Positions 4,085 to 64,000 of a DNA stretch of 64,000 nucleotides are shown piece by piece. Position 1 is the stretch's first letter; every line of letters begins with the position of its first letter. A program made the translations under genes and the position numbers. The notes under the pieces are model-generated. The model ran no database searches, was not told the DNA's origin, and saw only the letters and a list, made by a program, of their open reading frames with translations. This stretch comes from an uncultured Cytophagales bacterium (GTDB taxonomy: Bacteria; Bacteroidota; Bacteroidia; Cytophagales; Flammeovirgaceae). The stretch is from positions 457,236 through 521,235 of the forward strand of contig CAVSOI010000012.1 of assembly GCA_963729615.1 (NCBI GenBank). Reading direction: 5' to 3'.

Positions 4085-5546
4085 TTAGATTTTAGCCAAG
4101 CATAAAAACTCACCGCTTGCAAATCTTCCTCCTCGAATGGCAGAAACTCTAAGGGAATTATCTACTTTTTCTATGAAGTCGGGCTTGCTTACCAAATTTG
4201 GGTCTTTGAAAAGCAGTTTTATGAGCTGAATGAATTGCCTGACGTTCTGATAATTTGGTTGGGCAAAAATAGCTACATAGTTCCTTTCTATAGTTCTTAA
4301 CTTGTTGATTGCCAAATCGTAATCTCCAAAATCATAGTAGAAAATCATTTCGGACATACTCTTTTTGATAACCCAATCTCGCCCCATTTTCTTCTCGTAA
4401 TATTGGTCAGAGCGGTTGAGTTCACGCAAGTAACCAGATGCCTTCTCATATTTTTCTTGTTGGAAATAATAGAATCCTAAGTTGATAGTTAGCTCAATTT
4501 CCTCTTTGTCTGAAAGCTTGTACTTATTCTCTCTCTTCATCTGCTCCAAAACTGCCGTGGCTTTTTCCAATTGGTTGGAGAACACCAAATTGGCTGCCAA
4601 AAGTAAGCAATATTTTGGGTAGAATATATCGAAATAAGCTTTTTTCCCCTCAGAAAGGTTTTCAAAAAGCAAATCCAAATACTGAATTGATTCCTCAAAC
4701 CGTTTGCTTCGGTAAAGCACATGGCTTACCATGTAAAGCAAATTCAGTTTATAGTAAAGGTTGGATTGGGAAAAACCATGTTGCTGTTCAAATTGCTCAT
4801 ATTGGCTGAGTAGAAATGGCGCAAAAGCATGGTAATCTTTCTTTACCAAAGCGGCACTTCTGGCAATGGACATGAGGTTGAAAAACAAACGAGGCCTTTT
4901 GCTGACTGCTTCCGAAAGTCCGTAGCCCTCCAACACTTTCCGAATAATTTTCTCGAAATCTATATTTCCGCCCGTCAGCTTCACTAAACTGAGCGATTGT
5001 TGAATCAGGCTGTTGGCAACATTTGCCCGTTCGTCCTCATCTGCCAAACGTTTGTTTTCTTCCCATTTCACTACAGTCAGTTGCAAAGCTTCGTCAGGAT
5101 TGTGTGTAGTATATTCTATCTGGAGATTATAAATTGTGTTCAATAAATGAAATTGCTCGCTTTCTTGCGCTTGTTTTTCTCCCTTTTTCAAGAATTGCCA
5201 CGCCAATTTGTGCCTTCCTTTCCCCAATAAATACTGCGACATGGAAATCATTCCCATCACAGAAGAAGCTGGCCGAAGTGTCTTCGTCCATTCTTTTCAG
5301 CACAATGAAATCCAACAAATGACGCATGAGCCGTTTCCGCAACGCATGGTAGGCAACCGTATTCGCTTTTTCCGGATAGAGCTTCCCAACAATCTCTTTC
5401 GCTTTATAGTCTTTTTTCTGTTGCAGGATTTCAAAAAGCTCAAAATCCTTCCGATTCTTAGACTTTTTCTGCCTGCGGATAAACACGGCAAATTCTCGCC
5501 TATCTTCCGCAGAAAATGTTTCTATGATTGTTTTTAGGTTGTCCAA
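4085..5546 (-). CDS. Hypothetical regulatory protein with TPR-like helical repeats, in two overlapping frames (apparent 1-bp indel near 5262-5270)
   Basis: ORFs 5127..5546 and 4085..5260 overlap. Frame 1 ends ...DEDTSASFF and frame 2 continues SSVMGMISMSQYLLGKGRHK... across the run cttcttc. Confidence 0.45.
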
Positions 5547-7991: not shown

Positions 7992-8130
7992 GGAACGGAA
8001 ATTAAATAAATGCGTGTTTTGTCGCAGATTATTTTTGAGGCTAGTCTAGGCAAAAAACACAGTCATAGCAACGCTATGACGAGTATTTATAATGAAGTAC
8101 AGCGTGTCCCGGACCAAAAAGAAGCAAGAG
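7992..8130 (+). repeat. Repeat family A (MITE-like), copy 1
   Basis: Shares ends GGAACGGAAATTAAATAAATG...TTTATTTTTGAGG and ...GACAGCGTGTCCCGGACCAAAAAGAAGCAAG with the copies at 15040, 22060, 24835 and 48594. Confidence 0.8.
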
Positions 8131-8172
8131 AATTTTAATAAGTTATTTTTTACTTGTTCCTTATCACAACAG

Positions 8173-10753: not shown

Positions 10754-11836
10754 ATGGAATTCAATAACAATTATGTAATCATAATGGCTGGCGGAATTGG
10801 AAGTAGATTCTGGCCTTTCAGTCGAACTAACCATCCTAAACAGTTTCAAGATATTTTGGGAACTGGCAAAACCCTGATTCAGCAAACGGCAGAAAGGTTT
10901 GCCGAAATTTGCCCAAAGGAAAATATCTATGTAGTTACCAACGAAAGCTACTACGATTTAGTGAAGGAGCAACTTCCTTTTATGGAAAATGACCAAATTT
11001 TGCAAGAGCCAGTAATGCGAAATACAGCCCCGTGCATTGCTTACGCCACCTATAAAATTGCCTCCAAAAACCCAAAGGCAAACATGATTGTAGCTCCAGC
11101 CGACCATATTATTACCAAAGAGGAAGAGTTTGTGAGAGTAGTGAAGTCTGCCATGGCGGTAACTGCCAAAGAAAATATTTTGGTAACACTCGGCATCAAG
11201 CCAAGTCGCCCAGACACAGGTTATGGCTACATTCAGTATATTGAAGGTCAGAAAAAAGGCAGTTTACTCAAAATAAAAACCTTCACAGAGAAACCGGATT
11301 TAGCCTTGGCAAAAAGCTTCATAGAAAGCGGAGATTTCGTTTGGAATGCAGGAATTTTCATCTGGAATGCAGTAGCAATCAAAGAGAAATTTACTAAATA
11401 TTTACCAGATATTGGCGAGGCTTTCAATGACCTTTCAGATGTATATTATACCGAGAAGGAAGGCAAGAAAATGAAGGAAGCCTATTTCCAATGCCGAAAT
11501 ATCTCCATTGATTACGGAATCATGGAGCAAGCCACTAAAGCTTATGTGCTTCCAGCAAATTTCGGCTGGTCAGATTTAGGCACATGGAATTCGCTATTCG
11601 CCATCTCTGAAAAAGATGAAGATAATAATGTATTGCACGGAAATATTATGACTTATGACACAAAAAACTGCGTAATTAAAACGCCAGAAGGAAGGCTTGT
11701 TGTAGTTCAAGGTTTGGAAAACTACATTATTGCCGAGAAAGACAATGTTTTGCTAATCTGCGAAAAAGACCAAGAGCAGAAAATAAAGCAGTTTGTGGCA
11801 GATGTAAAAGATAAGAAAGGAACGGAATTTTGTTAG
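10754..11836 (+). CDS. manC: Mannose-1-phosphate guanylyltransferase (GDP-mannose pyrophosphorylase)
   Basis: N-terminal YVIIMAGGIGSRFWPFSRTNHPKQF nucleotidyltransferase motif, with overall ManC-like length and pattern. Confidence 0.8.
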   Translation: MEFNNNYVIIMAGGIGSRFWPFSRTNHPKQFQDILGTGKTLIQQTAERFAEICPKENIYVVTNESYYDLVKEQLPFMENDQILQEPVMRNTAPCIAYATYKIASKNPKANMIVAPADHIITKEEEFVRVVKSAMAVTAKENILVTLGIKPSRPDTGYGYIQYIEGQKKGSLLKIKTFTEKPDLALAKSFIESGDFVWNAGIFIWNAVAIKEKFTKYLPDIGEAFNDLSDVYYTEKEGKKMKEAYFQCRNISIDYGIMEQATKAYVLPANFGWSDLGTWNSLFAISEKDEDNNVLHGNIMTYDTKNCVIKTPEGRLVVVQGLENYIIAEKDNVLLICEKDQEQKIKQFVADVKDKKGTEFC

Positions 11837-11849
11837 GGAAGTAATGTAA

Positions 11850-11870
11850 AGTCGTTGCAATGCAACGACT
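11850..11870 (+). terminator. Hairpin agtcgttgcaatgcaacgact downstream of manC
   Basis: 9-bp perfect stem and 3-nt loop. It is followed by an A-run rather than a T-run, so the call is weak. Confidence 0.3.
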
Positions 11871-11908
11871 CTTAAAAAAACAACGCTGATACTAAAGCTG
11901 ATAAAGCT

Positions 11909-12964
11909 ATGATTGAATACATAGAAATAAAGAACTTCAAAAGCATTGAGAACCTGAGAATTTCAGGTTTGAAACGTGTGAATTTAATTTCTGGCAGAAA
12001 CAACACAGGGAAATCTAGTGTGTTGGAGGCTTTGGTTTTGTATGGTTATGGAGTTGATATTGGAGGGATTTCCAGAATTGTGGAAAACAGGCTTGAGAAA
12101 AAAAACAAAAAAACTTTTGAAGACATTTCGATACTACTGAACAGAAATTCCGAGTTGTTTGAGACATTCTCTGTTGAAACTGATTTTTTAAGAATCGTAT
12201 ATGGCTTTCATCCAAATGAAACTACTTCATCTCAAAAATCAAAAAAACACTCTCCACAGGGAGTTGAAAACAAAAAATACATAAAAAAGAACGGCATTGG
12301 ATTTTCTTCATATCTCTATGGCAAGTCTGAAGATATTGAAGATAGCTTGGTTTTAGAAAACCAAGAAGATATCAATAATGCTATTGAAAGCAAATGGAAC
12401 AATAGAGATATATTTGTGGAATGGGTGGATACATTCCGTTCAAAAGATGAAGAACTAGCTCTTATTTACGATAAAATCACTCTAACCGATTTAGAAAACT
12501 CCGTAGTTGAAGGTTTGCAAATTATCGAACCCGACATAGAAAGGCTTGCTTTTGTTTCAGGTAAAACTGGAGAAGGTCGTCATGCAGTTGTGAAAATGAA
12601 AGATAATGGAATTTATCCGCTGAGTGAAATGGGCGATGGTATCAACAGAATCCTTCACATTATACTTTCTTTGGTGAATGCAGAAAATGGGTTTTTGCTG
12701 ATTGATGAAATAGAAAATGGATTGCATTATTCAGCATTGGAACAATTATGGAAAGTGATTTTTGTACTCTCTGAAAAGTTAAATGTGCAAGTTTTTGCCA
12801 CTACTCATAGTGTTGACTGCATCCAATCTTTTGCGCTTCACCCTGATGAAGAAAATAAAAACTATTTCAGATTGGATAAAATCAATGGGGAGATTACCGT
12901 AGAGGATTATTCTTCAGAAGAATTGAAAATTGCTGTTCAGAACGATATTGAAACACGAGCATGA
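11909..12964 (+). CDS. AAA/ABC-type ATPase (AAA_21-like), predicted defence-associated ATPase
   Basis: Walker A GRNNTGKSS; Walker B / D-loop LLIDEIENGLH; H-loop TTHS. Confidence 0.7.
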   Translation: MIEYIEIKNFKSIENLRISGLKRVNLISGRNNTGKSSVLEALVLYGYGVDIGGISRIVENRLEKKNKKTFEDISILLNRNSELFETFSVETDFLRIVYGFHPNETTSSQKSKKHSPQGVENKKYIKKNGIGFSSYLYGKSEDIEDSLVLENQEDINNAIESKWNNRDIFVEWVDTFRSKDEELALIYDKITLTDLENSVVEGLQIIEPDIERLAFVSGKTGEGRHAVVKMKDNGIYPLSEMGDGINRILHIILSLVNAENGFLLIDEIENGLHYSALEQLWKVIFVLSEKLNVQVFATTHSVDCIQSFALHPDEENKNYFRLDKINGEITVEDYSSEELKIAVQNDIETRA

Positions 12965-13582
12965 TGAATGGCAAGCAACATTTATTGGTAGAAGGCAAAG
13001 GAGATGAACACGTCATGTATGCACTTTGCCAGAGGTTCGATTTGGCGAAAAGCTTTGATGTGAAATCCCCAGATGGAATAGATAATTTGTTTAAGCAACT
13101 TCCTGTTGTCTTGAAAAACAAACCCAAAACGGTCGGAATCGTAATTGATGCAGACCAAAATATAGAAAAGCGTTGGGAGAGTTTGAAAAGGTTACTTTCG
13201 CCATTGGGCTATGAATTCCCTAAAAGCCCAACAGAATCAGGGACAATTCTAAGAAGCCCAAACAAAACAACTATCGGGGTTTGGATTATGCCAAACAATA
13301 GGCTGAGTGGAATGCTAGAAGACTTTATGAAATACTTGATTCCAGAAAGACGACAAGCTATTGCCAAAAGCGGAATCAATTTTAAAAGAACTCGAAAAGG
13401 AAGGGATTGAAGGATACAAATCCATTCATCATTCAAAAGCACTGATTCACACTTGGCTTGCTTGGCAAGAAAACCCAGGAACTCCTTTTGGATTGGCAAT
13501 TACAAAAAAGTATTTTTCTACTGATGAAGAAAACTGCAACATATTCATCAATTGGCTTAACGATTTGTTCAATCCAATTTGA
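12961..13582 (+). CDS. DUF4276/TOPRIM-like partner of the upstream ATPase, split by a 1-bp indel in an A4 run (about 13363-13366)
   Basis: The N-terminus LLVEGKGDEHVMYAL carries a TOPRIM-like EG motif. ORF 12961..13410 and ORF 13361..13582 join as ...AIAK/AESILKELEKEG... if caaaag is read as caaag. The gene overlaps the ATPase stop (ATGA). Confidence 0.5.
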
Positions 13583-13937
13583 AGACAATACGATAACTTA
13601 TTAACTCAAATCACGAATTCGCTGATTTCCACTTGCTTTCTCACCTCTTGACCACTACTTTAGTAACATTTGTAGATAAAATAGTTGCAATCGTATTTGA
13701 TAAAACTAATTTGGTAGTGATAAACTGGTAAGGCTAACAAAATAAAAACCATAGCGCAAGCGTCCGCTTGTGACGAGTTATCCATAGAGTAACCTTACCT
13801 CTTTCACACTACCGCTCATTTATCTGCTCACTCCACAAAAGCTAAGCACTTTGTGCTATTTACTAGCGAGGGTCGCACCCTTTTATAATTTCCTATAAGT
13901 GAGATTGTTAAGAGCTCAAAACAGGAAAGTATTCAAG

Positions 13938-14132
13938 CTAGTGCATTGAGTTCTAAGTTATGGTTGGTATTTTTTGGAATATTTTTTTCTTCTACAAAGC
14001 AAAATCTGAATGGTTCGGCAATCCGATGGTTCGACATTTCGACATAGCCTAGCTACGGCTAAGAAATTTAATGCAGTAGAAGGAAAAAAGATACATAAAA
14101 TACAATCACGAACTTAGGAATTGATGCACTAG
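13938..14132 (-). repeat. Repeat family C (MITE with ~20-bp TIRs CTAGTGCAT...), copy 1
   Basis: Bounded by ctagtgcattgagttctaag ... cgaacttaggaattgatgcactag. Homologous to the copies at 33356 and 60438. Confidence 0.8.
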
Positions 14133-14152: not shown

Positions 14153-14602
14153 ATGAAAATCGAAGAAGAAATAAAGCAAAAGAAGTTCGACAACGAATAT
14201 CAGAAAGCCACTTTGAATATTATTTTCACGGCAAGTTGGCTTTCTAGCGAGATTCATGGCGTGCTGAAACCTTTCGGACTTTCCCAAGAGCAGTTCAATG
14301 TATTGCGGATTTTGCGAGGGCAAAATCCTAACCCTTGCTCGCTCGGCACAATTACCGAACGCATGATTGACAAAATGTCCAACGCAACTCGTTTGGTGGA
14401 AAAACTTCGTAAAAACGACTTAGTTTCAAGGGAGATATGCCCAACCAATCGCAGAAAGGTAGATATTTGTATTACCGAAGAAGGCTTGAAACTCCTAGAG
14501 CAAATTGACCCTGCATTGCTGAAAAAATTTGAGGAAATTCAACGAGTGGAAGATAAAGATTTGGAGGTTTTGAATGCGATGCTCGACACTATGCGAGGGT
14601 AA
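14153..14602 (+). CDS. MarR-family transcriptional regulator
   Basis: Winged-helix pattern FNVLRIL...LGTITERMIDKMSNATRLVEKLRKNDLVSRE...RRKVDICITEEG. Confidence 0.75.
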   Translation: MKIEEEIKQKKFDNEYQKATLNIIFTASWLSSEIHGVLKPFGLSQEQFNVLRILRGQNPNPCSLGTITERMIDKMSNATRLVEKLRKNDLVSREICPTNRRKVDICITEEGLKLLEQIDPALLKKFEEIQRVEDKDLEVLNAMLDTMRG

Positions 14603-14756
14603 ATAGATGATTGATTGATTAGATAATTTGCTGATGCGATGATTTTAAAGAAACGAAATTCTAATTCAGAGAATTTTTGATTGACAAGATGGCGAATCGA
14701 AGTCTCCTAACTTCAATTTCTGTATTTTCAAGTTCTTTACCTTTATAAGTAACAAC

Positions 14757-15010
14757 CTAAATAATGGGTTTAAAAATTTGATTATCAGCAGGTTAACTGT
14801 GTTTTTTTTAGTATAGTCAAAAATTAAGATTTAATGTATTGCACTATTTTTAGATTTAATTAAAAACTGTATGTCAATATTTTGACTAAATAAAACAATA
14901 TTAAGTTGCTGATTAGCAATTACTTAATTCATTTTTAATTTTTAATTCTTAATTCTTAATTTCCCCAATCAATAATTGTACTTATCAAATATATAACTCA
15001 TAATTGGGGT
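14757..15010 (+). repeat. Repeat family B (AT-rich, ~270-bp MITE-like), copy 1
   Basis: Starts AACCTAAATAATGGGTTTAAAAAT and ends ACTCATAATTGGGGT, with an internal (TTAATTC)n microsatellite. Near-identical copies lie at 15381, 25226, 43391 and 52033 (reverse). Confidence 0.85.
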
Positions 15011-15039
15011 TAACAGTAAAATAATAACCTGCACATCTC

Positions 15040-15205
15040 TCTTGTTTCTTTTTGGTCCGGAACACGCTGTCTATTCTTCGTTAAAAATCTCGCCATAGTG
15101 TCGGACTGGCGTTCCGGTGCTATGACTGCGATTTTTGCTCGGGGCACGTTGCCTAGACTAGCCTCAAAAATAAACTGCGATAGATGCACACTTTATTTTT
15201 TCGTT
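15040..15205 (-). repeat. Repeat family A, copy 2 (reverse)
   Basis: ctcttgtttctttttggtccggaacacgctgtc ... gcctagactagcctcaaaaataaactgcga is the reverse complement of the copy-1 ends. Confidence 0.8.
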
Positions 15206-15380
15206 GTTACTAAGAGTATGTTTGGATTGACTTTTTGGGAATTTTACGAGATTTTCAGAACAGGCTTTCTAGGCATTTTTGAGATGTATAGTCAAAGCTA
15301 TGTGGGGAGAAAATAACGAAGAAAGCATTTTTGAAAAGGCGTAGAAACCAAAATCAAGTCGATTCAAACATACTCTAAGT

Positions 15381-15653
15381 TACCTAAATAATGGGTTTAA
15401 AAATCTGATTACCAGCAGATCAACTGTATTTTTTTTAAGTATAGTCAAAAATTAAGATTTAATGTATTGCACTATTTTTAGACTTAATTAAAAACTGTAT
15501 GTCAATATTTTGACTAAATAAAATAATACTAAGTTGTTGATTAACAATTACTTAATTCATTTTTAATTCTTCATTCTTAATGGCCAGGCCACCCTGTCTT
15601 CATTTCCCCAATCAATAATTGTACTTATCAAATACATAACTCATAATTGGGGT
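15381..15653 (+). repeat. Repeat family B, copy 2
   Basis: Near-identical to 14757-15010. Carries an extra GGCCAGGCCACCCTGTCTT insert. Confidence 0.85.
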
Positions 15654-15730
15654 AAGTTATTGCAGTCTGGACTCTCCAATTTTCCCAACTCTAAAAATCC
15701 CCAAAATTCCCGATACTGATTTAACTTCAT

Positions 15731-15806: not shown

Positions 15807-17037
15807 ATGAAAAAGAGATTTTGCCATTTTTGCGGTGCTGGAGAAAAAGAAGTTGAATTTTTAATTGCGGGCGTTCATGCCGATATCTGCAATGGTTGCG
15901 TTGACCAAGCGCATGCCATTATGGCAAAAGAGCGTGGGGAAGACCAAAAACCATTGCCTGCTTTGAGCCTGAAGAGTCCGATTGTGATTAAACAGCATTT
16001 GGACGAATATATTATTGGACAGACAAAAGCCAAAAAAGTGCTTTCCGTAGCGGTTTACAATCATTACAAACGTCTGATGCAGAAAGTGAAAGACGATGTG
16101 GTGGTGGAAAAATCCAATATTGTGATGGTTGGCGAAACGGGAACTGGAAAAACTTTATTGGCAAAAACACTCGCCAAAGTCCTCCAAGTTCCATTTTGCA
16201 TTGCTGATGCCACCGTAATTACTGAAGCAGGTTATGTGGGCGAAGATGTGGAAACCATCTTGACCAGATTGCTCCAAGCGGCAGATTACAATGTGGCTGC
16301 AGCCGAAAGAGGAATTGTTTACGTGGATGAAATGGACAAAATTGCTCGGAAATCTGACAATCCATCCATTACGAGAGATGTGAGTGGCGAAGGTGTGCAA
16401 CAGGCAATGCTGAAACTCTTGGAAGGAACGATTGTAAATGTGCCACCACAAGGCGGAAGGAAACATCCTGAGCAGAAAATGGTGGCAATCAACACCGAAA
16501 ATATCTTATTTATTTGCGGTGGAGCTTTTGATGGAATCTCCAGAATCATAGCAAAACGACTAAACACCAAGCCATTAGGTTTTGTGAACGATAAAAACCA
16601 AGGCGTTGAGTTGAACGAAGAAAACTTGTTGCAATACGTAACTTCCCAAGACTTGAAATCATTTGGGTTGATTCCCGAACTCATCGGACGTTTGCCAGTT
16701 GTGGCTCATCTGAATCCGCTCGATAGAGAAGCATTGAGGGAGATTCTGACGAGACCAAAAAATGCGCTTGTCAAACAATATCAACGCCTCTTCGAAATGG
16801 AAGGAATTGAGTTGAACTTTACCGAATCTGCACTTCCAATATATTGTAGATAAAGCAATTGAGTTCAAGTTGGGAGCGAGAGGTTTGCGTTCTATCTGCG
16901 AATCAATTATGCTCGAAACAATGTTCGATATCTCAATCCAAAAAGCTGAGGGCGTGAAGGAAATCATTGTAGATGAAAACTTCGCCCATCGCCATTTCGA
17001 GCTTTCTGGCGAAGCATTTAGGTTAAAGGCAGCGTAA
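15807..17037 (+). CDS. clpX: ATP-dependent Clp protease ATP-binding subunit ClpX, with an apparent 1-bp insertion near 16836-16840 splitting the frame
   Basis: N-terminal C4 zinc finger CHFCG...CNGCV and Walker [13 protein letters not shown]. The ORF ends ...ESALPIYCR*, but the +1 frame continues [22 protein letters not shown]..., the conserved ClpX C-terminus. Reading ccaatatattg as ccaataattg restores [12 protein letters not shown]. Confidence 0.85.
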
Positions 17038-17332
17038 GAAAAGTCTGAAGTCTTTAGTAATAAGTCTTTAGTACAAAGTCAGAAGATAGGATTATTAAAA
17101 TTGCTTACGTAGAGTCTATAAATAGAAGAAAAAAATAGCTGCTTTCAAAAAATACCAACCAGAACTGAGAACTCAATGCACTAGTGCATTAAAATTGACC
17201 GAATTACCTACGTTTGTTGGATTCTAAAAACAATGCTTCAAATAATTCTGTTTGAAATCATATACTTTTTTCAAAAATCACAAATTCCAACTTTGGACTT
17301 AAGACATTGGACTTTGTACTAAACATAAAATT

Positions 17333-19776: not shown

Positions 19777-20376
19777 TTACGAATCAGCCTGTTTCTGCCC
19801 ATTTTCCACAGAATCGAAAACCACATTCCTATAAATCTCCGAAAGTTTGATTTCCATATCTACAGAGTTTAACGTAATGCTTGCTTCCATTCCTTTTGCA
19901 TCTCGCAATAGCCAGAAGCCAAATTCATTTTTGGAGAAAATCTCAATGAGTGGTTTGTGCTGGGAAATAAGAATATATTCTTCGAGTGATTCGATATTTC
20001 GGTAAGCCTCAAACTTTTCGCCACGGTCATAACTTTCCGTGCTTTTAGAGAGAACTTCTACGATTATTTTTGGGCTTGTTTCTACTAACTCATCATTTAC
20101 CTCAACATCCCCACAAACGACTGTGCAGTCTGGATAGTAAAAACTATTTTTTTTTAAGACAGATACTTTCAATTCGCTAGAAAAAACTTCGCAACCTTTT
20201 CCTAAAAAAGAATTAGTGAATGATGCGTTTATGCTAGAAATAATTCTACTGTGCCGTCTTGTTCCGTCAGGCATAGCCACAATATAGCCATTGTGATACT
20301 CGTATTTTTCCTTGCTGATTTCCTCTAAATCAAAGTATTCCGATGCGGTATAATATAGCTTTTCTGCTACGCTCAT
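19777..20376 (-). CDS. Uma2-family (DUF820) putative PD-(D/E)xK endonuclease
   Basis: The 199-aa size and the pattern YEYHNGYIVAMPDGTRRHSRII...E...K are typical of Uma2. Confidence 0.6.
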   Translation of the reverse strand: MSVAEKLYYTASEYFDLEEISKEKYEYHNGYIVAMPDGTRRHSRIISSINASFTNSFLGKGCEVFSSELKVSVLKKNSFYYPDCTVVCGDVEVNDELVETSPKIIVEVLSKSTESYDRGEKFEAYRNIESLEEYILISQHKPLIEIFSKNEFGFWLLRDAKGMEASITLNSVDMEIKLSEIYRNVVFDSVENGQKQADS

Positions 20377-21879: not shown

Positions 21880-22059
21880 GGAGTCAGTTAAGTTTGTAAG
21901 GCTAAAACCAGTTTAGTTATGAATAGTTATGTATTGGCTTCCGAATTTATTCGCATTTGTACCCACAACAGTTCATTATTCTTACTTTTGCGAATAAGTA
22001 GAATCTTATCAAATTTAATTTATGTTTGGAAACAATTTAGCTTAGGCAATACTTTCTAA

Positions 22060-22322
22060 GGAACGGGAATTAAATAAGGTGCTATTTTATTGCAGTTTAT
22101 TTTTGAGGTCGGGTCGGGCCACGTTGGCCACGCTGGCTAGTTTAGCCGTTCCCGGCCGGGACAAAAATTGTAGCCGTAGTGGAACTAGCATAGCACTAGA
22201 ACGCCAGTCCGATGGAACGCCAGTCCGATGGAACGTCAGTCCGATGGAACGCCAGTCCGACACTATGGCGAAATTTTTAACGACAAATAGACAGCGTGTC
22301 CCAGACCAAAAATAAGCAATAG
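22060..22322 (+). repeat. Repeat family A, copy 3 (longest), with an internal 16-nt tandem (GAACGCCAGTCCGATG) x about 4 at 22199-22261
   Basis: Same termini as copy 1. The internal tandem copy number differs between copies: 1 at 15100, 2 at 24900, 4 here. Confidence 0.85.
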
Positions 22323-22507
22323 AAAATGTGCATTTATTTATTTTCCGTTCCTAAAATAGTATTCTGGATTTTTAGGCAGATTGTGATTGAATTTGCTCAG
22401 AATAAGTACAAAATAGAAAGTCGGATGGTTGATGTCATAGCAAATTACGCATTGAAAATCAGCACCTTATAAAACATAAGTAGTTACGATAATTTTGTTT
22501 GATTACT

Positions 22508-22515
22508 TAGCTTTG
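22508..22515 (+). promoter_or_regulatory. Candidate -7 element TAGCTTTG upstream of the GH3 gene
   Basis: Matches the TAnnTTTG consensus about 27 nt upstream of the ATG at 22542. Confidence 0.25.
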
Positions 22516-24701: not shown

Positions 24702-24834
24702 ATTTAGACGAGAGCCCAAATAACCCAACAGCTAATCAGGGCAACCTCCTCAAAAAAAGGATTCTATCTCGGATTTTATAAAAAAAATAGCCGTTGTTGG
24801 TCTTAGGCATATTAAAGAAATAAACTAAACATTT

Positions 24835-25045
24835 CTCTTGTTTCTTTTTGGTCCGGGGCACGCTGTCTATTCTTCCAGTTCCACTGCGGGTGTAAAAATA
24901 TTAGCCATAGTGTCGGACTGGCGTTCCATCGGACTGGCGACCCAGTGCTATGCCTAATATTTTTGTCCCGGCTGGGAACAGCTAAACTAGCTAGCGTAGC
25001 CCGACCTCAAAAATAAATCGCAATAAATGTCCATTTTATTTCTTT
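24835..25045 (-). repeat. Repeat family A, copy 4 (reverse)
   Basis: ctcttgtttctttttggtccggggcacgctgtc ... cgacctcaaaaataaatcgcaataaatg. Confidence 0.8.
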
Positions 25046-25225: not shown

Positions 25226-25496
25226 AACCTGAATAATGGGTTTAAAAATCTGATTATCAGCAGGTTAACTGTATTTTTTTAAGTATAGTCAAAAATTAAG
25301 ATTTAATGTATTGCACTATTTTTAGACTTAATTAAAAACTGTATGTCAATATTTTTACTAAATAAAGCAATACTAAGCTGTTGATTAACAGTTACTTAAT
25401 TCATTTTTAATTCTTCATTCTTCATTCTTCATTCTTAATTCTTCATTTCCCCAATCAATAATTGTACTTATCAAATACATAACTCATAATTGGGGT
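25226..25496 (+). repeat. Repeat family B, copy 3, with an expanded (TTCATTC)n tract
   Basis: Same termini. The internal ttcattcttcattcttcattcttaattcttcatt tract is longer than in the other copies. Confidence 0.85.
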
Positions 25497-25498
25497 AG

Positions 25499-33355: not shown

Positions 33356-33535
33356 CTAGTGCATCAAATCCTAAGTTCGTGTTGCTATTTTTGTTTCTTA
33401 TTTCCTTCTACTGCATTAAAATTCTTAGCCGTAGCTATGGCTATGTCGGAATGTCGAACCACTTAAATTTTGCTTTGCAGAAGAAAATAATATTCCAAAA
33501 AATTACAGACACTAACTTAGAACTCAATGCACTAG
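33356..33535 (+). repeat. Repeat family C, copy 2; its terminal CTAG supplies the stop codon of speE on the opposite strand
   Basis: ctagtgcatcaaatcctaagttcg ... cttagaactcaatgcactag. The gene stop (reverse complement of 33532-33534) lies inside the terminal inverted repeat. Confidence 0.8.
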
Positions 33536-34708
33536 CATTTTTCTTTCCTACAATAAGCCAACATCCACGAACCTGTTGGGAAACTTGGCAAATGGATTTC
33601 CTTGGTTTGCACATTCAACTTTCCAAATACACTCTCCAGAATACTTTTACGATTGGCTACTTCATCTTTCTCCATCCAAACTGAACCGAGCGGAATGGTG
33701 GCAATTCCGTTTGGAGCTAGTTTTTCACGAATCAAATTTGCCAACGCTAAAGTCATTTCACTTTTCTCAATTTGAGTAGAGTCAATGGAATCCAAAATGA
33801 TTAAGTCAATGGAATTCGATTCCAAATTTCTAAGTAATTCGTAGCCATTTTCGTACTGAATATCAACCTTCGAGTTGCTCAATCCAACCGAAACTTTTGG
33901 AAAAAACTGTATGGAGATTTCTACTACTTTCGAGTCAATTTCAGCAAGAATAATCTGCTCGACCGAATCAAATTTCAATAATTCTCGCACAGTTCCGCCA
34001 TCTCCACCGCCAATTACCAAAGCAGTTTTTACAGTCGGATTTTGCTCTAAGGGCGGGAATTACCAAGTTCTCATGCAGAATATGTTCATCGGCATCGGTT
34101 ACGGCAATCGTGCCATCCAACACGAGCATTCTGCCAAAAGTCTTGGTTTCCAAAACCTGAATTTTCTGAAACTCGCTTTCTCCATCGAACAGCAAATTGC
34201 CTTCGTGCTTTACGGAGAGGGCAATTTCCCCCGCTCGTTCGGTAAACCAAAGCTCTCTAGAGATTTTTCGCCTATGTTTTTTGATGGTTTCAGATTCAGC
34301 AAAGTGTGCTGGTTGGATTTTATTTATTTCAGTTGATGAGTTGGCTTCCAACATCTGAGTTTGCCCACGCTTCATTTCGATTGCGGAAATGTGAGAGGCT
34401 TTGAGAGCAGTTTTTAGATATTCAAGTGCTTCCCAAGGGTTCACGGTTTCCCCGCAAGTGAAAATATCTACTGAGGCAAATCCATATTCTGGCCAAGTAT
34501 GAATTGCCAAATGGCTTTCTTGAATGACCACCACGCCAGAAACCCCAATTGGCGCAAAATGATGGAAAGTGGAGTTCAGAACCGTAGCATTTGCTTTCTG
34601 GGCAGAATCCACCATGGCATTCTCCAAAAAAGTTACTTCATTCAGCAACTTTTCTGAGCATCCGTAGATTTCCGCCAGAACATGTCTGCCCAAAGATTGA
34701 TTTTCCAT
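33532..34708 (-). CDS. speE: Fused S-adenosylmethionine decarboxylase (SpeH-like) / spermidine synthase (SpeE), split by an apparent 1-bp insertion in a C-run about 34035-34045
   Basis: N-terminal ...[16 protein letters not shown] (AdoMetDC) then ...WFTE...[20 protein letters not shown]...HENLVIPA. The other frame continues [25 protein letters not shown]...DSID (the spermidine synthase motifs). Confidence 0.75.
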
Positions 34709-43390: not shown

Positions 43391-43661
43391 AACCCGAATA
43401 ATGAGTTTAAAAAATTGATTATCAGTAGGTTAACTATAATTTTTTTAGTGTGGTCAAAAATTAAGATTTAATATATTGCACTATTTTTTGATTTAATTAA
43501 AAACCGTATGTCAATAGTTTGGCTAAATAAAATAACATAATTTACTGATTAACAATTACTTAAGTCATTTTTAATTCTTCATTCTTAATGGCCAGGCCAC
43601 CCTGTCTTAATTTCCCCAATCAATAATTGTACTTATCAAATACACAACTCATAATTGGGGT
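43391..43661 (+). repeat. Repeat family B, copy 4
   Basis: aacccgaataatgagtttaaaaaattg ... ctcataattggggt. Contains the GGCCAGGCCACCCTGTCTT insert. Confidence 0.85.
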
Positions 43662-43714
43662 ATTTAGGTTTCCCCAAAATTAAATGCGGATGAGGCAGTT
43701 GCTGTACTCGCAAC

Positions 43715-48345: not shown

Positions 48346-48593
48346 ACAAATTACTGTTCACAATCTCCAACCGTATTCTTCACAAAAAATTAAATTCCTA
48401 TTTAGGTATATGACGATTTTGAAGTTTACAAAATGAATTTGCTTCCCTCCAAAGTTAGAGTATGTTTGAATCGACTTAATTTTTGGTTTCTACGGCTTTT
48501 CAAAAATACCTGCTTCGTTGTTTTCTCCCCGAATAGCTTTGTGTTTTGAAAATCTCGTAAGATTCCCAAAAAATCAATCCAAATATACTCTTA

Positions 48594-48764
48594 GGAATGA
48601 GGATTAAATAAATGCGTGTTTTGTCTCAGTTTATTTTTGAGGTCGGGTCGAGCCAGATTGGCTACGCTAGCTAGTCAAGGCAAAATTTGCAGTCATAGCA
48701 CCGCTATGCGAGATTTTTAACGAAGAATAGACAGCGTGTCCCGAACCAAAAAGAAACAAGGGGC
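48594..48764 (+). repeat. Repeat family A, copy 5
   Basis: ggaatgaggattaaataaatgcgtgttttgtctcagtttatttttgaggtcgggtcgagcc ... gacagcgtgtcccgaaccaaaaagaaacaagg. Confidence 0.8.
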
Positions 48765-50497: not shown

Positions 50498-51335
50498 TTA
50501 TTATTCAGGTTGAGAGAAAGCAAAAATGGAAATTTCCACAATTCTTGCTTGAGATTTTGTGGATTATTCACACATTGCCCACAATCTACAATTATATATA
50601 TATTTTCCGAACAAATGAAACATTGTCGTTTGAAAATTGAGAATTAGGAAATAAGACTTAAAGTACTGATAGTCATATATTTACCTAAAAAATCGGGTAG
50701 TATGTAAGATGTAAGGCTACTTTTGGATATTTCGATACAAGCGAACGCTTGCGCTATGATTTTCTATTTGTTAGCCTTACCATTTTATCACTACCAAAAA
50801 GTGATTCAGTTGTCAATTTAGGGAAAACATTGTGTTATTCTAATAAACCTTCGGCTGTTTGTTTTGCAAGCTAGGAAGCTTTGACTAGCGAATGGAATAC
50901 ATAATAGTTCTTTGTTGAACCAGTAAGGAATTAACTAAGTAGTGTTCGCTAAATATTTTCCTATTATAAGGACATCAAGTGTGTAACCCTATTCTTGGTT
51001 ATCAAAGGCACAAGCGGACGCTTGCGCTATAGTTTTTTGTTGTTTTTGACGCTACTTACTTGCCACCATTCAAAATAGGAAATTATTTAAGTACACCTAC
51101 TTAATAATAGAATACTGACAAGTAATAAAAAACACAAATTGGACTCAATTCTTAGGAATATGTTTGAATCGACTTATTTTTGGATAATATTTTGAATTGT
51201 AAACATTACATCGCTTTGAGAGACTTTTTTTTTAGGATTGCCATCAGCATAATTCTGAAAGATACGTTATGTATAATCCGTATTGAGAGTATTATACTTT
51301 TCTGTTCTGCTATTTTCTAACTTTACTATCTGGCC

Positions 51336-51662: not shown

Positions 51663-52032
51663 GGTTGGATTTAGTTATTCATAGCTTATGGCTCACGCAG
51701 AACCTGCCGATATTTGCCAAAATAGCACATTTGCGAGTCTGAAAACAGACACAGTCAAACGCATTTTATCTTAATTTTGCGTGGACTTTATCCTTATCAA
51801 AATTAAAAAATATTATATTCAAATGGCAAATTACATATCATAGCTTAGATTTGGTACTTTTGCAGAATCATTAAAGAAAAGTGATAGCAGTTGGATTTCA
51901 AATTCCCTAGTTTTTGAAAAGTTCTGGACTCTACTGTCTCCAACCAAAAAGCAAGTTTGAGAAAGAATAAGTACAAGTACAAAATAGAAAGTTGGATGGC
52001 CGATGCCATATTAAAATAGAAAGTTGAATATT

Positions 52033-52301
52033 ACCCCAATTATGCGTTATGTATTTGATAAGTACAATTATGGATTGAGGAAATTAAAACAGGGTGGCCT
52101 GGCCATTAAAAATGAAGAATTAAGAATGATTTAAGTATTTGGTAATCAGTATTTTGATTTTATGAGTTCCGTTAAATTATTGTCATATAATTTTTGATTA
52201 AATCTAAAAAAAGTACAATATAGCAAATCTTAATTTTTGACTACTCTAAAATAACACGGTTAAATATCTGAAAAACAAAGTTTTAAACTCATTATTCGGG
52301 T
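52033..52301 (-). repeat. Repeat family B, copy 5 (reverse orientation)
   Basis: accccaattatgcgttatgtatttgataagtacaattat ... aaactcattattcgggt is the reverse complement of the family B ends. Confidence 0.85.
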
Positions 52302-59676: not shown

Positions 59677-60017
59677 AAATCAAACCCTTATAAAGGAGTT
59701 AAACTCTACAAATTAAGGCAAAGAAAACGGCTATGACTCTGAGAAAAGAAGATTTTTTAGCACTAATTGGTTGTTGGTCTCGCAGTAAATATTTTTATGT
59801 ACGTTTTTTTTGATTTATTATTCTTGCTCTAAATATAATGCTGAAGGATTTTATTGCTAATTCTACCATGCTACATGATAATTTTTCTCAATAGCTTAAA
59901 TTTCAGCCTTTCTACCTCCCCTAACCCCTCCAAAAGGAGGGGATTTAGCTCCTTCCCCTTTTAGGGCAGGGGTGGGGTAAAATATTGGCTCTCAAAAATT
60001 GTCATGTAGTATGTAAT

Positions 60018-60395
60018 TCTACTCGACATTTCCCACCCTTTTTTTTAGAGAAATTGTATTTTTTAGATACAATTTTATTGGCGGATTGAGAACTCGGCAG
60101 TGTGCTGTCGATGGCGACCCCCGTTTGCACCTGCCGAAGGTCGGACCCGAAGGTCGGGACCCGATGTTCGGGAATTGTTGAAAAGCTTTTGGGTTCGTTG
60201 TTTTCTCGCTTACTAGACTGGCGGGAGCGAAAATGCACACCGCCAGCTAGTCGCTTTGCGAAATGAGTTTCAGTAGTTCAGGATATTCGGAAAAAGCACT
60301 TAGTATTTGAATAGTTATGTTTTTTAGCAATTAAGTGTAATTACACAATAAATACCAAAAGTCAATTTTAAGGGTGGGAAATGTCGGTTCTACTT
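60018..60395. repeat. Composite MITE-like element with ~23-bp TIRs (TCTACTCGACATTTCCCACCCTT / AAGGGTGGGAAATGTCGGTTCTA) enclosing a family-D GC-rich core
   Basis: TIRs read directly. Interior gtgctgtcgatggcgacccccgtttgcacctgccgaaggtcggacccgaaggtcgggacccg... Confidence 0.65.
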
Positions 60396-60437
60396 TAAGA
60401 CTCTGAAAATACAGAACTCGTTTACCACTAGCTGAAG

Positions 60438-60633
60438 CTAGTGCATCAACTCCTAAGTTCGCATTCGTATTTTATGTTTCTTGTTTCCTTCTACTGCATT
60501 AAAATTCTTAGCCGTAGCTATGGCTATGTCGAAATGTCGAACCATCGGATTGCCGAACCATTCAGATTTTGCTTTGTAGAAGAAAACAATATTCCAAAAA
60601 ATACTGAAAGGAACTTAGAATTCAATGCACTAG
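60438..60633 (+). repeat. Repeat family C, copy 3
   Basis: ctagtgcatcaactcctaagttcg ... cttagaattcaatgcactag. Confidence 0.8.
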
Positions 60634-60754
60634 TGGCAATTGAATCAGCACTCAGAAAGCTTATTCATTGCATCCACCTTCAGATAGATATTTAGAATAA
60701 CAACCCAAAAATGACACTTGAAATGCGATTCCGGCTAGAGTCTTAAAGTAGAAC

Positions 60755-60815
60755 TAAACTAGCCTCAAAAATAAACTGAGGCAAAACACACATTTATTTA
60801 ATTCCCATTCCTTAG
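60755..60815 (-). repeat. Repeat family A, terminal fragment (reverse)
   Basis: gcctcaaaaataaactgaggcaaaacacacatttatttaattcccattcc is the reverse complement of the family A 5' end. Confidence 0.6.
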
Positions 60816-60981
60816 TATGATTATTGCCTATTTGTAATTTTAAAATTGCACCAAGCAAAGATATTGTTTAGAATATTCTAAGAATTGACGGTTGAATTAG
60901 GCTAAATACGCTTCATAATGTTTTTTTCCAATTTTTGCTTTTCTATTTTACTATTTCGCTAACTTACTATCCGAACTGGGT

Positions 60982-63900
60982 TTGGGAAGAATCAAACAAC
61001 ATATTTACCTAATTACCGCAATCATTTTCATTATGTTGATGATTGGGCTTAGGCAGTTTTTTTTTAGTGAAACAAACGTTAGCTCTTACGTTGAGCAAAT
61101 CAAGGAAAATCTGAAAATAGTCTCTGAAGATGCTGACAATGACATTTTCTATGTAAAAAAGAAACTGAAAGAAGCGAATACAATTCATTTTGGCGATTTT
61201 TTGGAGGAAAATAAATATCCAATCTTCATTTTCAAGAATAAGAAATTGGTCTATTGGTCAGACCATACTTATTACCTGAACTATTACGATTTAATTGGTT
61301 ATTATGATGAACGTAGCATAGAAACGAAGCGAGGGATATTCATTGCGAAAAAATCTATGATTATGCTCGATAATCAAGATTATGAAATCGTGGCGCTCAT
61401 TCCCATCAGAAGAAGATATCAGGTTGACAATGAGTTTCTTAGGCCTACATTAAATCCCGATATTTTCCCTGGACAAAGAGTGCGAGTTAGCACCAGCAAG
61501 GGAAACCTGATTGACATTTACAACAACTACAAAACTTACCTTTTCTCGGTAACTTTCCCTGAAGATTTCAGCTACCATTCCGAGCAAAGATGGATTATGG
61601 TGGTTCTGATGGGAATTGTAGTCTTACTTTTATTGCTGCAATTACAGAAATACTTGCAAAAACTTTTGCGAAAAGGGCAAACACTCCGAGCCACGCTTTT
61701 ACTTGCATTCGGTTTGGTTTCCGTTCGGGCAATTATGCTCTACTACCAAATTCCGTATGATTATTTGGAGTACGAACTATTTGAGCCTCAAGTATTTGCA
61801 TCATCTCTGATGAATCCTTCTTTGGGAGATTTATTCATCAATTCGCTTTGCATTCTGGTCATCATTTTGTTTTTCTATGCGAATTACCCGAAAATAATTC
61901 GCTACAAAAAAATCCTTTCCTTTCCGAATTGGGCAAAAGCATTGATTTCGGTAACTGCGGTGGTGCTTTCCTATTTCGTGGTTTTCGGGATTTACCAAGT
62001 GCTGAAAACAATTTACGATAACTCACTGATTTCCTTGGACATTACGCAGGGAATTGCCTTTCCTGTTATCAAAATCGCCTGTCTTTTGGTGTTTGTCTGT
62101 TTGGCAATTGGCTACTTTTTCACAGCACACATTTTCGCTAAACTGCTCATTAAGCTATCAAATAACTCTTACGATTTGCCAATACGCTTCGTAATGGGCA
62201 GTTTGGTTTTTTACCTGATTTCTTTATTGTTCGGATTTGAAAACATCACGCTTTTCAATGTAAATGCCATCTATATTCTCTTCGTTTCCTTTTTGGATTT
62301 ACCAATTTCGCTGAAACGTTCAGATTACAGCACTTATATTTATCTTTTCGTTTGTGCCGTAGTAGTCTCTACGGTTGGAGCATATTCTATCTACAAATTT
62401 GAGGAGGAAAGAACCATTGGCAACAAATACAAATATGCCAATACGCTACTGATTGAAAATGACTTATTGGGAGAATATTACTTAAATGAAATGACCAAAA
62501 AGGCTCAAAAAGATGTTTCCATCCAAAATAAATTCAAAGATGGCTCCACAGCCTCCATCGAATGGATGGAACAGAAAATACGGAGAATGTACTTTAATCG
62601 CTACTTCGACAAATACAACATCAATATTTTATTTTTCGATAAAGACCAAAAACCCTACAACTCCAGAAGGTATTATAATATAGAATTTGCTTCAAAAAAC
62701 AGGGCGCAATACAGAACTGAATACGAAAATATTTACTTCATCAACGATTTGACAGGAGGAACGAAAAGTTACGAAGTCTTCATTCCCATCTCAAAAGATT
62801 TCAACAGATTGGGTTTCATTCTGATGAAATTAGATCTTCGGAAAGTCATCCCGAATAGCATCCACCCTAACTTTTTTGTGGATAAAAAGTACCAAGTCTC
62901 CGATGAAGCGAGCAATTACAGTTATGGAATTTACTCCAAAAATAGTCTGCTTTTCAGTTCGGGCGAGTTTGCTTATGGCAATAATCTGCTGAAAGAGTTT
63001 GAACACAACATGGGTTTTCTGAAAGATGAAGTGGAGACAGAAGGTTTTCATCATTTACGAGTCGCAAATGACAATGACCAACAGATTGTGATTTCCTCTC
63101 CAATTTACCCAAACAATCAAATCCTTACTAATTTCTCCTTTTTATTTCTACTTCTCGTCTTTGTGCTTCTGCTGATAATTTCCGGATATAATTTCTGGGT
63201 CAGGCAGAACAAAGCCACTTCGCAAGCCAAAAAATTGAATTTCAATACAAAAATTCAGCTTTATTTGAACTTCGCCTTCTTTGTGCCACTCATTGTCGTC
63301 AGTATAATTGTGGTAAGCATTCTGAATTCTTCCAATATTCAAGAAACCAAAACCTACTATTTGGAGAAAGCAGAAAGTATTGCCAATGACCTCATGAGTC
63401 ATGTGCAAGAGTTTTACAATGGTTCCTTAGAAAAATCCCAACTCCAAAACTACATTTCCGAAATTGCCAATATTACGCAATCAGACATTAACCTATTCGA
63501 TAAAAACGGGCAGTTGATTGTTCCTAGCCAAAATTATATCTATGAAAATGAACTGATGAACAGCGTGGTCAACCCTCATGCCTATGCGCAACTTATTGAG
63601 GAGAACCAAAGCAAAGCCATGTTCGATGAGTCAATAGGAATGCTCAATTTCAACTCTGCTTATGTGAGTGTGAAATCATTGGAAAATGGAGAGGTTTTGG
63701 GGATTGTGGGCATTCCCTTTTTTGGTTCAAAACAAAGATATGAGAAGCAAGTAATTGATGTACTTTCCAAAATCATGCAAGCGTTTGCCTTTATTCTGAT
63801 AGGCTTGCTTGCCATTTCCTATTTCTCTGCCCGAACTTTGACCGCTCCACTAAGGCTGATTCGCCAAAAAATCCGAAAGGTAAGTTTTCAGGAGAACAAT

Positions 63901-64000
63901 GAGCCGTTAGATTATGTTTCTGACGATGAAATTGGCCTTTTAGTGAGTGAGTACAATAAAATGCTAGTGAAGTTGGAAGAAAGTAAGCGAGCGCTTTCCA
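60982..64000 (+). CDS. Large membrane sensor (probable histidine kinase): signal-anchor, extracellular domain, ~7 TM block, second extracytoplasmic domain, TM, HAMP; 3' end outside the window
   Basis: Open frame from the TTG at 60982 (first ATG at 61033) to the window end; it was not listed in the ORF track because it has no stop. Multiple hydrophobic helices, then a HAMP-like ...LRLIRQKIRKVSFQENNEPLDYVSDDEIGLLVSEYNKMLVKLEESKRAL at the end. Confidence 0.6.
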   Translation, partial: MGRIKQHIYLITAIIFIMLMIGLRQFFFSETNVSSYVEQIKENLKIVSEDADNDIFYVKKKLKEANTIHFGDFLEENKYPIFIFKNKKLVYWSDHTYYLNYYDLIGYYDERSIETKRGIFIAKKSMIMLDNQDYEIVALIPIRRRYQVDNEFLRPTLNPDIFPGQRVRVSTSKGNLIDIYNNYKTYLFSVTFPEDFSYHSEQRWIMVVLMGIVVLLLLLQLQKYLQKLLRKGQTLRATLLLAFGLVSVRAIMLYYQIPYDYLEYELFEPQVFASSLMNPSLGDLFINSLCILVIILFFYANYPKIIRYKKILSFPNWAKALISVTAVVLSYFVVFGIYQVLKTIYDNSLISLDITQGIAFPVIKIACLLVFVCLAIGYFFTAHIFAKLLIKLSNNSYDLPIRFVMGSLVFYLISLLFGFENITLFNVNAIYILFVSFLDLPISLKRSDYSTYIYLFVCAVVVSTVGAYSIYKFEEERTIGNKYKYANTLLIENDLLGEYYLNEMTKKAQKDVSIQNKFKDGSTASIEWMEQKIRRMYFNRYFDKYNINILFFDKDQKPYNSRRYYNIEFASKNRAQYRTEYENIYFINDLTGGTKSYEVFIPISKDFNRLGFILMKLDLRKVIPNSIHPNFFVDKKYQVSDEASNYSYGIYSKNSLLFSSGEFAYGNNLLKEFEHNMGFLKDEVETEGFHHLRVANDNDQQIVISSPIYPNNQILTNFSFLFLLLVFVLLLIISGYNFWVRQNKATSQAKKLNFNTKIQLYLNFAFFVPLIVVSIIVVSILNSSNIQETKTYYLEKAESIANDLMSHVQEFYNGSLEKSQLQNYISEIANITQSDINLFDKNGQLIVPSQNYIYENELMNSVVNPHAYAQLIEENQSKAMFDESIGMLNFNSAYVSVKSLENGEVLGIVGIPFFGSKQRYEKQVIDVLSKIMQAFAFILIGLLAISYFSARTLTAPLRLIRQKIRKVSFQENNEPLDYVSDDEIGLLVSEYNKMLVKLEESKRALS

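Follow-up and report, generated by a model that had tools for sequence, protein, structure and literature searches.

A PDC-M38 cassette, most likely inactivated, pairs an ABC-type ATPase with a predicted OLD-type TOPRIM protein of the DUF3226 family in a Cytophagales genome

The pairing of an ATPase with a TOPRIM effector is a theme represented by AriB/DUF4435, AbiLii/RloB, and the fused OLD proteins. In the PARIS system, a hexamer of AriA sequesters AriB, a trigger releases AriB, and the AriB dimer cleaves tRNA (PMC11464382, PMC10802264). The two-metal TOPRIM site of AriB is composed of E26, D30, D88, E90, and E122 (PMC11464382), and P2 Old has recently been reported as a tRNase (bioRxiv 10.64898/2026.07.10.737580). 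The generality of the theme was explicitly left open by the PARIS authors. The phage defence candidates (PDCs) are a set of 145 untested candidates that derive from genes located inside BREX, DISARM, and type I restriction–modification (RM) loci, and two cassette types are assigned to PDC-M38 in the supplement of that work (bioRxiv 10.1101/2024.01.29.577857). Here, we analyze a two-gene locus at positions 11909–13582 of a 64,000-nucleotide stretch (the window) of contig CAVSOI010000012.1 from an uncultured Cytophagales bacterium. On balance, we favor the view that the locus is a horizontally acquired PDC-M38 two-gene operon with an OLD-type TOPRIM effector, and that the copy in the window is most likely a recently inactivated remnant.

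The two genes lie on the plus strand in the same order as in PDC-M38. Gene A (11909–12964) encodes an apparently intact ABC-type (SMC/Rad50-head-like) ATPase of 351 aa, which matches the PADLOC hidden Markov model (HMM) of PDC-M38A (PDLC04611) with an E-value of 8.7e-80, its residues 1–350 covering positions 1–383 of the 383-position profile. The first open reading frame (ORF) of gene B (12961–13410, 149 aa) starts with MMNGKQHLLVEGKGDEHVMYAL and shares the four nucleotides ATGA (12961–12964) with the end of gene A. A third ORF (13361–13582), beginning with TTG at 13361, lies in the +1 frame and covers the helical domain of gene B. The PDC-M38B model (PDLC04624) matches gene B in these two reading frames, at 8.8e-36 (profile positions 13–148) and 8e-25 (151–219). 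Likewise, positions 2–139 of DUF3226 (PF11536) are found in ORF 12961–13410 (136.8 bits, 1.2e-39) and positions 138–208 in ORF 13361–13582 (84.5 bits, 1.1e-23), both above the Pfam gathering threshold of 27 bits. Since the two halves of DUF3226 are consecutive, they belong to a single gene, gene B, which a frameshift has divided. Removal of one base yields a protein of 206 aa that covers positions 2–208 of the 208-position DUF3226 profile (236.3 bits, 3.8e-70). The best E-values of the pair, 1e-80 and 1e-39, are well past chance.

The locus thereby shares with PDC-M38 (Payne et al. 2024) the full-length HMM matches, the gene order, the strand, and the tight coupling, but it differs in that its gene B is frameshifted and that it resides among housekeeping genes rather than in a BREX, DISARM, or RM locus. 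The sequence-only reading had already recognized a split OLD-like ATPase and TOPRIM pair as a defence candidate, together with the ATGA overlap and the acidic EG motif near the start of gene B, and all three are borne out here by the PDC-M38A/B matches, the predicted fold of gene B, and the conservation of E11-G12. Its placement of gene B in DUF4276/RloB has to be replaced by DUF3226, since neither model matches gene B in Pfam at E ≤ 1 or any of 47 family members at E ≤ 0.1.

Gene B is predicted to be composed of a TOPRIM α/β core (aa 1–129, 12961–13347), which is followed by a four-helix domain (aa ~130–206, 13349–13582) read in the +1 frame. An AlphaFold2 model, calculated with 47 homologs as input (predicted local distance difference test score, pLDDT, 90.7), contains the α/β core at residues 6–124 and four helices at residues 133–147, 154–167, 176–181, and 190–203. 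The seven best Foldseek matches of the model are all OLD, Eco2, or AriB, and the core superposes on solved OLD-family TOPRIM domains. The model also shows the arrangement characteristic of these domains, with a glutamate after the first strand, a DxD motif at or just after the end of the third strand, and extra acidic ligands. Particularly, E11 immediately follows the strand 6–10 and D15 lies within the helix 13–25, together forming the motif E11-G12-K-G-D15 (12991–13005). D63 closes the third strand (57–63), and D65 of the motif D63-A64-D65 (13147–13155) is located just past it. The last core helix (119–124) carries E120 (13318–13320), within the sequence GMLEDF, a candidate fifth acidic ligand. 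E11, G12, D15, D63-A64-D65, G117, and E120 are invariant across the 47 DUF3226 homologs, as are K159, W165, Q169, G173, P175, and G177 (GxPxG) in the C-terminal domain. On the basis of this model, the fold of gene B is an OLD-type TOPRIM. The pattern E-x3-D...DxD...E would mirror the five residues of the AriB site, with E120 putatively equivalent to E122 of AriB.

At the sequence level, the link to the OLD TOPRIM domains appears faint but recurrent. OLD-like_TOPRIM_1 matches gene B at 0.014 (15.6 bits), below the Pfam cut-off of 27 bits, while PF20469 (OLD-like_TOPRIM) gives weak matches in 22 of the 47 family members (best 5e-4) and DUF4435 in one; each unrelated Pfam match among these members is a singleton. 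Sequence searches of the PDB, with gene B alone or with the family profile, returned nothing relevant, and the relation to TOPRIM shows up only in the fold and in Pfam matches under the cut-off. PH0156 of Pyrococcus horikoshii (PDB 2P62, from structural genomics) shares only 18% identity with gene B and was not found by sequence with the profile of the bacterial DUF3226 family. When a lactococcal AriB was analyzed independently with HHpred, PH0156 emerged as the best template (PMC11381338).

Gene A possesses the motifs of an ABC ATPase on an ABC head fold. The Walker A motif GRNNTGKS (aa 29–36, 11993–12016), the signature-like motif SEMGDG (aa 239–244, 12623–12640), the Walker B and D-loop LLIDEIENGLH (aa 263–273, 12695–12727), and the H-loop region TTHS (aa 298–301, 12800–12811) were located, in agreement with the Walker A/B and H-loop motifs noticed earlier. 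In an alignment of 47 sequences, G29, N31, N32, T33, G34, and K35 are invariant in the P-loop, M241, G242, D243, and G244 in the signature-like motif, D266, E267, E269, N270, L272, and H273 in the Walker B/D-loop, and T298, T299, and S301 in the H-loop region, where H300 is nearly so. Gene A retains every residue that is invariant in the family. The same alignment identifies aa ~48–186 (12052–12465), a lysine- and poly-A-rich central insert, as the variable region of the family; pLDDT falls below 50 at aa 85–160 of the AlphaFold2 model of gene A. Below PDC-M38A, the PADLOC matches of gene A include AbiLi (1.6e-57), AriA, NsnB, HEC-01A/02A, GajA, Old, and PtuA.

These lower-ranked matches allow the locus to be compared with the described systems. 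PARIS resembles it in being a split two-gene system of an ABC ATPase and an OLD-type TOPRIM protein, whose acidic residues follow the pattern E-x3-D...DxD/E...E. However, gene A is shorter than AriA and devoid of its long helical blades. Assignment to PARIS itself was rejected: gene B has no AriB or DUF4435 match, and gene A matches the AriA HMMs only partially (4e-24 and 1.5e-22), far more weakly than PDC-M38A. The AbiL/RloAB systems of Lactococcus and Campylobacter share a full-length AbiLi match to gene A and a small TOPRIM/OLD-like partner in a two-gene operon (PMC13064643). The AbiLi half of AbiL is present at our locus, but gene B matches neither AbiLii (PADLOC) nor RloB, and the effector family is replaced by DUF3226. 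With respect to the OLD family (P2 Old, TsOLD, class 2 BpOLD/GajA, retron Eco2/Eco8), gene B reaches the Pfam OLD-like TOPRIM models only with scores under their cut-off. Classes 1–3 of the OLD nucleases do not apply either, as the ATPase and TOPRIM parts are unfused here, in two ORFs with a stop/start overlap. Unlike Gabija and the retrons, the pair has no helicase partner and no reverse transcriptase. Gabija was rejected on a partial GajA ATPase match (3.7e-17) and the lack of an adjoining helicase, the neighbors being ManC and MarR. HEC-01, an Hma-embedded ABC ATPase and TOPRIM pair, follows the same two-gene logic (HEC-01A, 2.4e-18); HEC-01B shows a weak in-register match to residues 5–67 of gene B (0.011), but the HMM families are distinct.

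The pairing of the two genes is conserved across the family. A homolog of gene A lies directly upstream of the DUF3226 gene in 79 of 80 retrieved loci, the lone exception being at a contig edge, and the junction, measured from the stop of A to the start of B, falls between −4 and +4 nt in 74 of 75 loci. A family scan of one genome per species, a set that does not include the window's own genome, revealed at least 579 loci with 41–55% identity to gene B in at least eight phyla, including Bacteroidota, Cyanobacteria, Planctomycetota, Chloroflexota, several proteobacterial classes, Acidobacteriota, and Ignavibacteria. The family is rare, with 4,319 representatives among 1.84 billion in an exhaustive profile search. 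The members listed are stand-alone proteins, mostly of 200–230 aa, the complete ones of ~200–250 aa. The neighbors differ between loci: around 32 family loci, the four closest ORFs (two per side) match 201 different Pfam families, the commonest of which, Uma2 (PF05685), accounts for 4 of 127 flanking ORFs. PDC-S03 matches occur in three of these ORFs, and the scattered PADLOC matches near the 32 loci comprise PDC-S03, Mad2, TmtA, PbeA, and Cas6. Copies were found on 9 of 72,556 plasmids. One of them, the 9.7-kb non-mobilizable Acinetobacter cumulans plasmid NZ_CP035939.1, harbors an intact pair (ATPase 343–1521, DUF3226 1518–2180) with a 4-nt overlap, located beside tetR/tet(39) and repM; this pair (343–2180) would provide a convenient intact representative for experiments. 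The patchy spread, varied flanks, presence on plasmids, and obligate pairing together identify a self-contained, horizontally mobile two-gene cassette rather than a core-genome operon. The spotty phylogenetic distribution proposed as a check in the sequence-only reading is indeed observed.

The frameshift in gene B was located by comparison with L001, a JGI metagenome contig that is syntenic with the window from LytTR to the M16 peptidase, with 77–90% nucleotide identity per aligned block. The lesion is a one-nucleotide insertion in an AAAG context at 13346–13349 (plus strand), where CCAGAAAGACGAC in the window corresponds to CCAGAAA-ATGAC in L001, and after which the frame changes to +1. The three-frame translations and the family consensus FLIPxDDKLLP of the 47 homologs fit the same site. 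The earlier suggestion of a frameshift is therefore correct, as DUF3226 is split over two ORFs, but its proposed position in the A4 run at 13362–13365 was rejected, since this run is identical in L001, which lacks this frameshift. A sequencing error, named there as the probable cause, is here held to be the less likely one.

The break is located exactly in the linker between the last helix of the TOPRIM core (119–124) and the first helix of the helical domain (133–147). It parts the core from the domain carrying K159, W165, Q169, and GxPxG, so that a functional enzyme is unlikely unless the indel is an error. Gene B thus appears split in a cassette type whose members should have both genes intact, and the window copy is probably inactive, an ordinary and degraded member of PDC-M38. 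The position in the linker, the TTG-start ORF spanning the helical domain, and the purifying selection still acting after the break are the features in favor of a functional break, through a programmed +1 frameshift or through separate synthesis and reassembly of the two domains. We consider this the least probable of the explanations discussed here, with hardly any weight, because L001 and the 80 family loci all continue in one frame across this position, the sequence offers no evident slippery motif or stimulatory structure, and the listed family members are single proteins. Programmed frameshifting was rejected on the same lack of conservation of the site.

Substitution rates between the window and L001 place the event in time. 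The ratio of nonsynonymous to synonymous substitutions (dN/dS, Nei–Gojobori) is 0.12 for gene B overall, 0.11 for its N-terminal part and 0.14 for its C-terminal part, compared with 0.02–0.08 for the gene A segments flanking the insert and 0.01–0.13 for neighboring genes. Purifying selection accordingly acted on the module during most of the divergence, and its disruptions are recent or artefactual. A long-dead pseudogene is rejected by the ratios of 0.11–0.14 on either side of the break.

Whether the extra base belongs to the organism is the point on which the favored reading and its strongest competitor differ. In the competing explanation, which we regard as a serious possibility though the less probable one, the base at 13346–13349 is an assembly or consensus error and the organism carries a functional PDC-M38 pair. 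Constraint after the break equals that before it, gene B retains all invariant residues apart from the indel, and gene A is intact. Moreover, run ERR12040027 was assembled independently with A7 where the window has A8 in gene A, which demonstrates discrepancies of the indel type in this organism. Frequencies such as three frameshifts in 64 kb are met in imperfectly polished long-read assemblies, which also speaks for an error. However, none of the three (A3 followed by G in gene B, GAA to CCAA, and near CCCGCCC) lies in a long homopolymer, and for this reason we lean towards a real inactivation. The module is also disrupted independently in L001, whose gene B contains a 10-bp tandem duplication (AGAGGGCAAC twice, L001 5402–5421) in the LLVEG catalytic motif, unlikely as a sequencing artefact, and whose gene A is frameshifted at a T5 run (L001 ~4640–4650). 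In addition, the coding coverage of ~67% (ORFs of at least 100 aa) and the many insertions resembling miniature inverted-repeat transposable elements (MITEs) are consistent with real erosion. The ERR12040027 contig, the only independent assembly found, ends 44 nt before the frameshift site, and an exact-match scan of JGI metagenomes as an independent check of the frameshift gave no match. Overall, the evidence leans modestly towards a frameshift that is real and recent rather than an assembly error.

The other two split genes are located elsewhere in the window. In ClpX (15807–17037), a complex change of GAA to CCAA at 16834 (16830–16840) shifts the frame at residue ~387 of 453; the gene is intact at 453 aa in L001 and annotated as 348 aa in the source record of the window. 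An AdoMetDC–spermidine synthase fusion (33532–34708, minus strand) is split into ORFs of 246 aa and 162 aa that overlap at 33968–34020, with the break near CCCGCCC and a MITE-like repeat (33356–33536) directly downstream. Dispersed repeats make up ~6% of the bases of the window, whose intergenic gaps are occupied by several MITE-like families, and its last 4.3 kb (59677–64000) contain no ORF of at least 100 aa. The low coding coverage and the three split genes suggest relaxed selection or an imperfect assembly.

The disruptions in both relatives also bear on what the pair does. A toxin–antitoxin (TA) or addiction module, with a nuclease toxin and an ATPase antitoxin stabilizing plasmids and islands and no dedicated anti-phage role, would fit the tight coupling of the two genes and their occurrence next to replication and tet(39) genes on small Acinetobacter plasmids. 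The putative toxin is broken in the window and both genes are broken in L001, a succession of losses that a TA pair would be expected to follow. Most family loci stand alone, apart from recognized defence genes, and type II TA behavior is described for PARIS itself (PMC10802264). Nevertheless, most copies are chromosomal, the PDC-M38 type was defined from copies within BREX, DISARM, and type I RM loci, and TA-like behavior can coexist with defence, so we judge a pure addiction role unlikely. A housekeeping DNA-repair or chromosome-maintenance pair of the core genome of the lineage, a Rad50/SMC-like ATPase with a TOPRIM protein, agrees with the top structural matches of gene A, which are SMC and Rad50 heads, and with the housekeeping neighbors and their synteny in L001. 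This interpretation is highly improbable, as the family is rare, occurs patchily among phyla, and has different neighbors at every locus, gene A lacks coiled-coil arms and has an insert of only ~120 aa, the pair is independently disrupted in both close relatives, and its GC content is slightly under that of the flanks. The sequence-only reading had named a core-genome setting with housekeeping neighbors as grounds for abandoning the defence assignment; such neighbors are present here, whereas the contexts elsewhere in the family are variable.

The insert of gene A differs markedly between the two relatives. The insert of the window (12052–12465) and that of L001 (4548–4877) share an estimated ~17% aa identity and are essentially non-homologous, and the DNA alignment collapses in this region, whereas the flanking segments of gene A retain ~90% DNA and 96–98% protein identity. 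Because the insert cannot be aligned between such similar flanks, the comparison suggests a swap of the presumed sensor insert as a cassette by recombination between the two alleles. Synonymous divergence (dS) of gene B and of the gene A flanks is 0.24–0.57, below the 0.6–3.1 of neighboring genes. Within the insert, an A8 homopolymer (12098–12105, plus strand) is replaced by A7 in the ERR12040027 assembly, where a contig of 1,528 bp (L082) is identical to window positions 11776–13304 except for this single 1-nt indel; the ATPase is thereby split into 76 and 269 aa. The A8/A7 difference would be either a homopolymer error or a slipped-strand (phase-variable) polymorphism. Further A7 runs are found within gene A at 12107–12113 and 12241–12247.

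Taken at their most far-reaching, these observations would make PDC-M38 a mechanistically distinct PARIS-like abortive-infection system, DUF3226 (structural prototype PH0156) an unrecognized branch of the OLD-type TOPRIM nucleases, and both the insert exchange and the A8/A7 switching true biology. If so, the insert would be swapped as a cassette between ~97% identical alleles, A8/A7 slippage would render the defence phase-variable, and a cost of autoimmunity would explain why the module is knocked out repeatedly and independently in close relatives. We think this combination of proposals improbable as a whole.

For the favored reading, a horizontally acquired PDC-M38 operon, a mechanism can be proposed by analogy with PARIS, OLD, and Gabija. 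Gene B is translationally coupled to gene A, and a dimer or oligomer of the ATPase would bind the TOPRIM nuclease and keep it inactive. The ATPase may sense infection via its variable insert, and a cue from the phage, combined with the binding or hydrolysis of ATP, would release or activate the TOPRIM protein. This protein would then cleave tRNA or DNA by a two-metal mechanism, so that growth stops and the infection is aborted. Of this scheme, the folds, the motifs, the obligate pairing, and the mobility were observed here, and the A–B interaction, the trigger, the substrate, and the defence itself are extrapolated from the analogies. The window copy would be a remnant of such a system in a genome that contains other split genes and a heavy MITE-like load, with gene A still looking intact.

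Several findings weigh against this interpretation. The correspondence between the residues of gene B and those of AriB and OLD is drawn from motif spacing and secondary structure, not from superposition. A literature search found no experiment and no paper on PDC-M38 or any DUF3226 protein, and HEC-01 gave no protection in its only reported test (Payne et al. 2024, bioRxiv 10.1101/2024.01.29.577857). Defence genes are present among the four nearest ORFs in only a minority of the 32 family loci examined, phage records are without any copy of the family, and the local neighbors of the pair are housekeeping genes syntenic with L001. Finally, the dN/dS of 0.14 downstream of the break, which shows selection on that part until recently, fits an assembly error equally well.

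The locus in the window is itself of little weight, as one more, probably dead, copy of a cassette catalogued in PADLOC. The PDC-M38 type is already catalogued and experimentally untested, and the assignment of DUF3226 as an OLD-type TOPRIM nuclease, based on conserved motifs and the predicted fold, comes from the present analysis. DUF3226 thereby gains a testable assignment, with a putative five-residue acidic site and an AbiLi-like ABC ATPase as its partner, and would represent the fourth effector family of the ATPase and TOPRIM theme. Moreover, the window and L001 together constitute a small natural experiment, with an apparent swap of the presumed sensor insert and with repeated, recent inactivation set against purifying selection that was otherwise strong.

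The genes surrounding the pair are a formate/nitrite transporter, LytTR, and ManC upstream, and MarR (14153–14602), ClpX, YbaB, Macro, and an M16 peptidase downstream. The ClpX protein shares 73% identity with its counterparts in Sediminitomix, Flexithrix, and similar genera, which places the window in a Cytophagales lineage. The sequence-only reading placed the pair next to Uma2 and MarR genes. MarR does follow the pair, while Uma2 (19777–20376, minus strand) is not adjacent but lies 6 kb and five genes away. A local defence-island context is not supported, and across the 32 family loci it is supported only weakly. Between the stop of ManC (11836) and the start of the ATPase (11909), a perfect palindrome, AGTCGTTGCA-A-TGCAACGACT, is located at 11850–11870 and followed by an A7 run; judged from its sequence, it may be a terminator or operator parting the cassette from ManC. 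Scans of the window for Rfam families and tRNAs gave no match, and a promoter and terminator scan, which does not cover Bacteroidota promoters, gave only background levels.

The gap of 570 bp after gene B contains two repeats, in accordance with the repeat-filled gap described earlier; neither is part of the system, and L001 has neither at the syntenic site. The first is a dispersed ~104-bp repeat (13710–13813) with copies at 50696–50798 and 51009–51044, which in L001 occurs at 13376–13435 and 13606–13668. The second is a MITE-like ~196-bp repeat (13937–14132) with terminal inverted repeats of ~49–58 nt, the arms of which are at 13938–13986 and 14084–14132. Its copies at 33356–33536 and 60438–60633 and a fragment at 17123–17184 bring the element to at least three full copies with 82–91% identity. 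Further downstream, a ~272-bp dispersed non-coding repeat (76–91% identity) is present at 14754–15010, 15382–15654, 25226–25497, 43391–43662, and 52032–52301. Two of its copies flank another repeat in the AT-rich 1.2-kb gap between MarR and ClpX (GC down to 0.24), a gap of only ~0.5 kb in L001. Further short repeat families are found at 8001–8131, 15017–15381, 22055–22509, 24813–25027, and 48452–48760.

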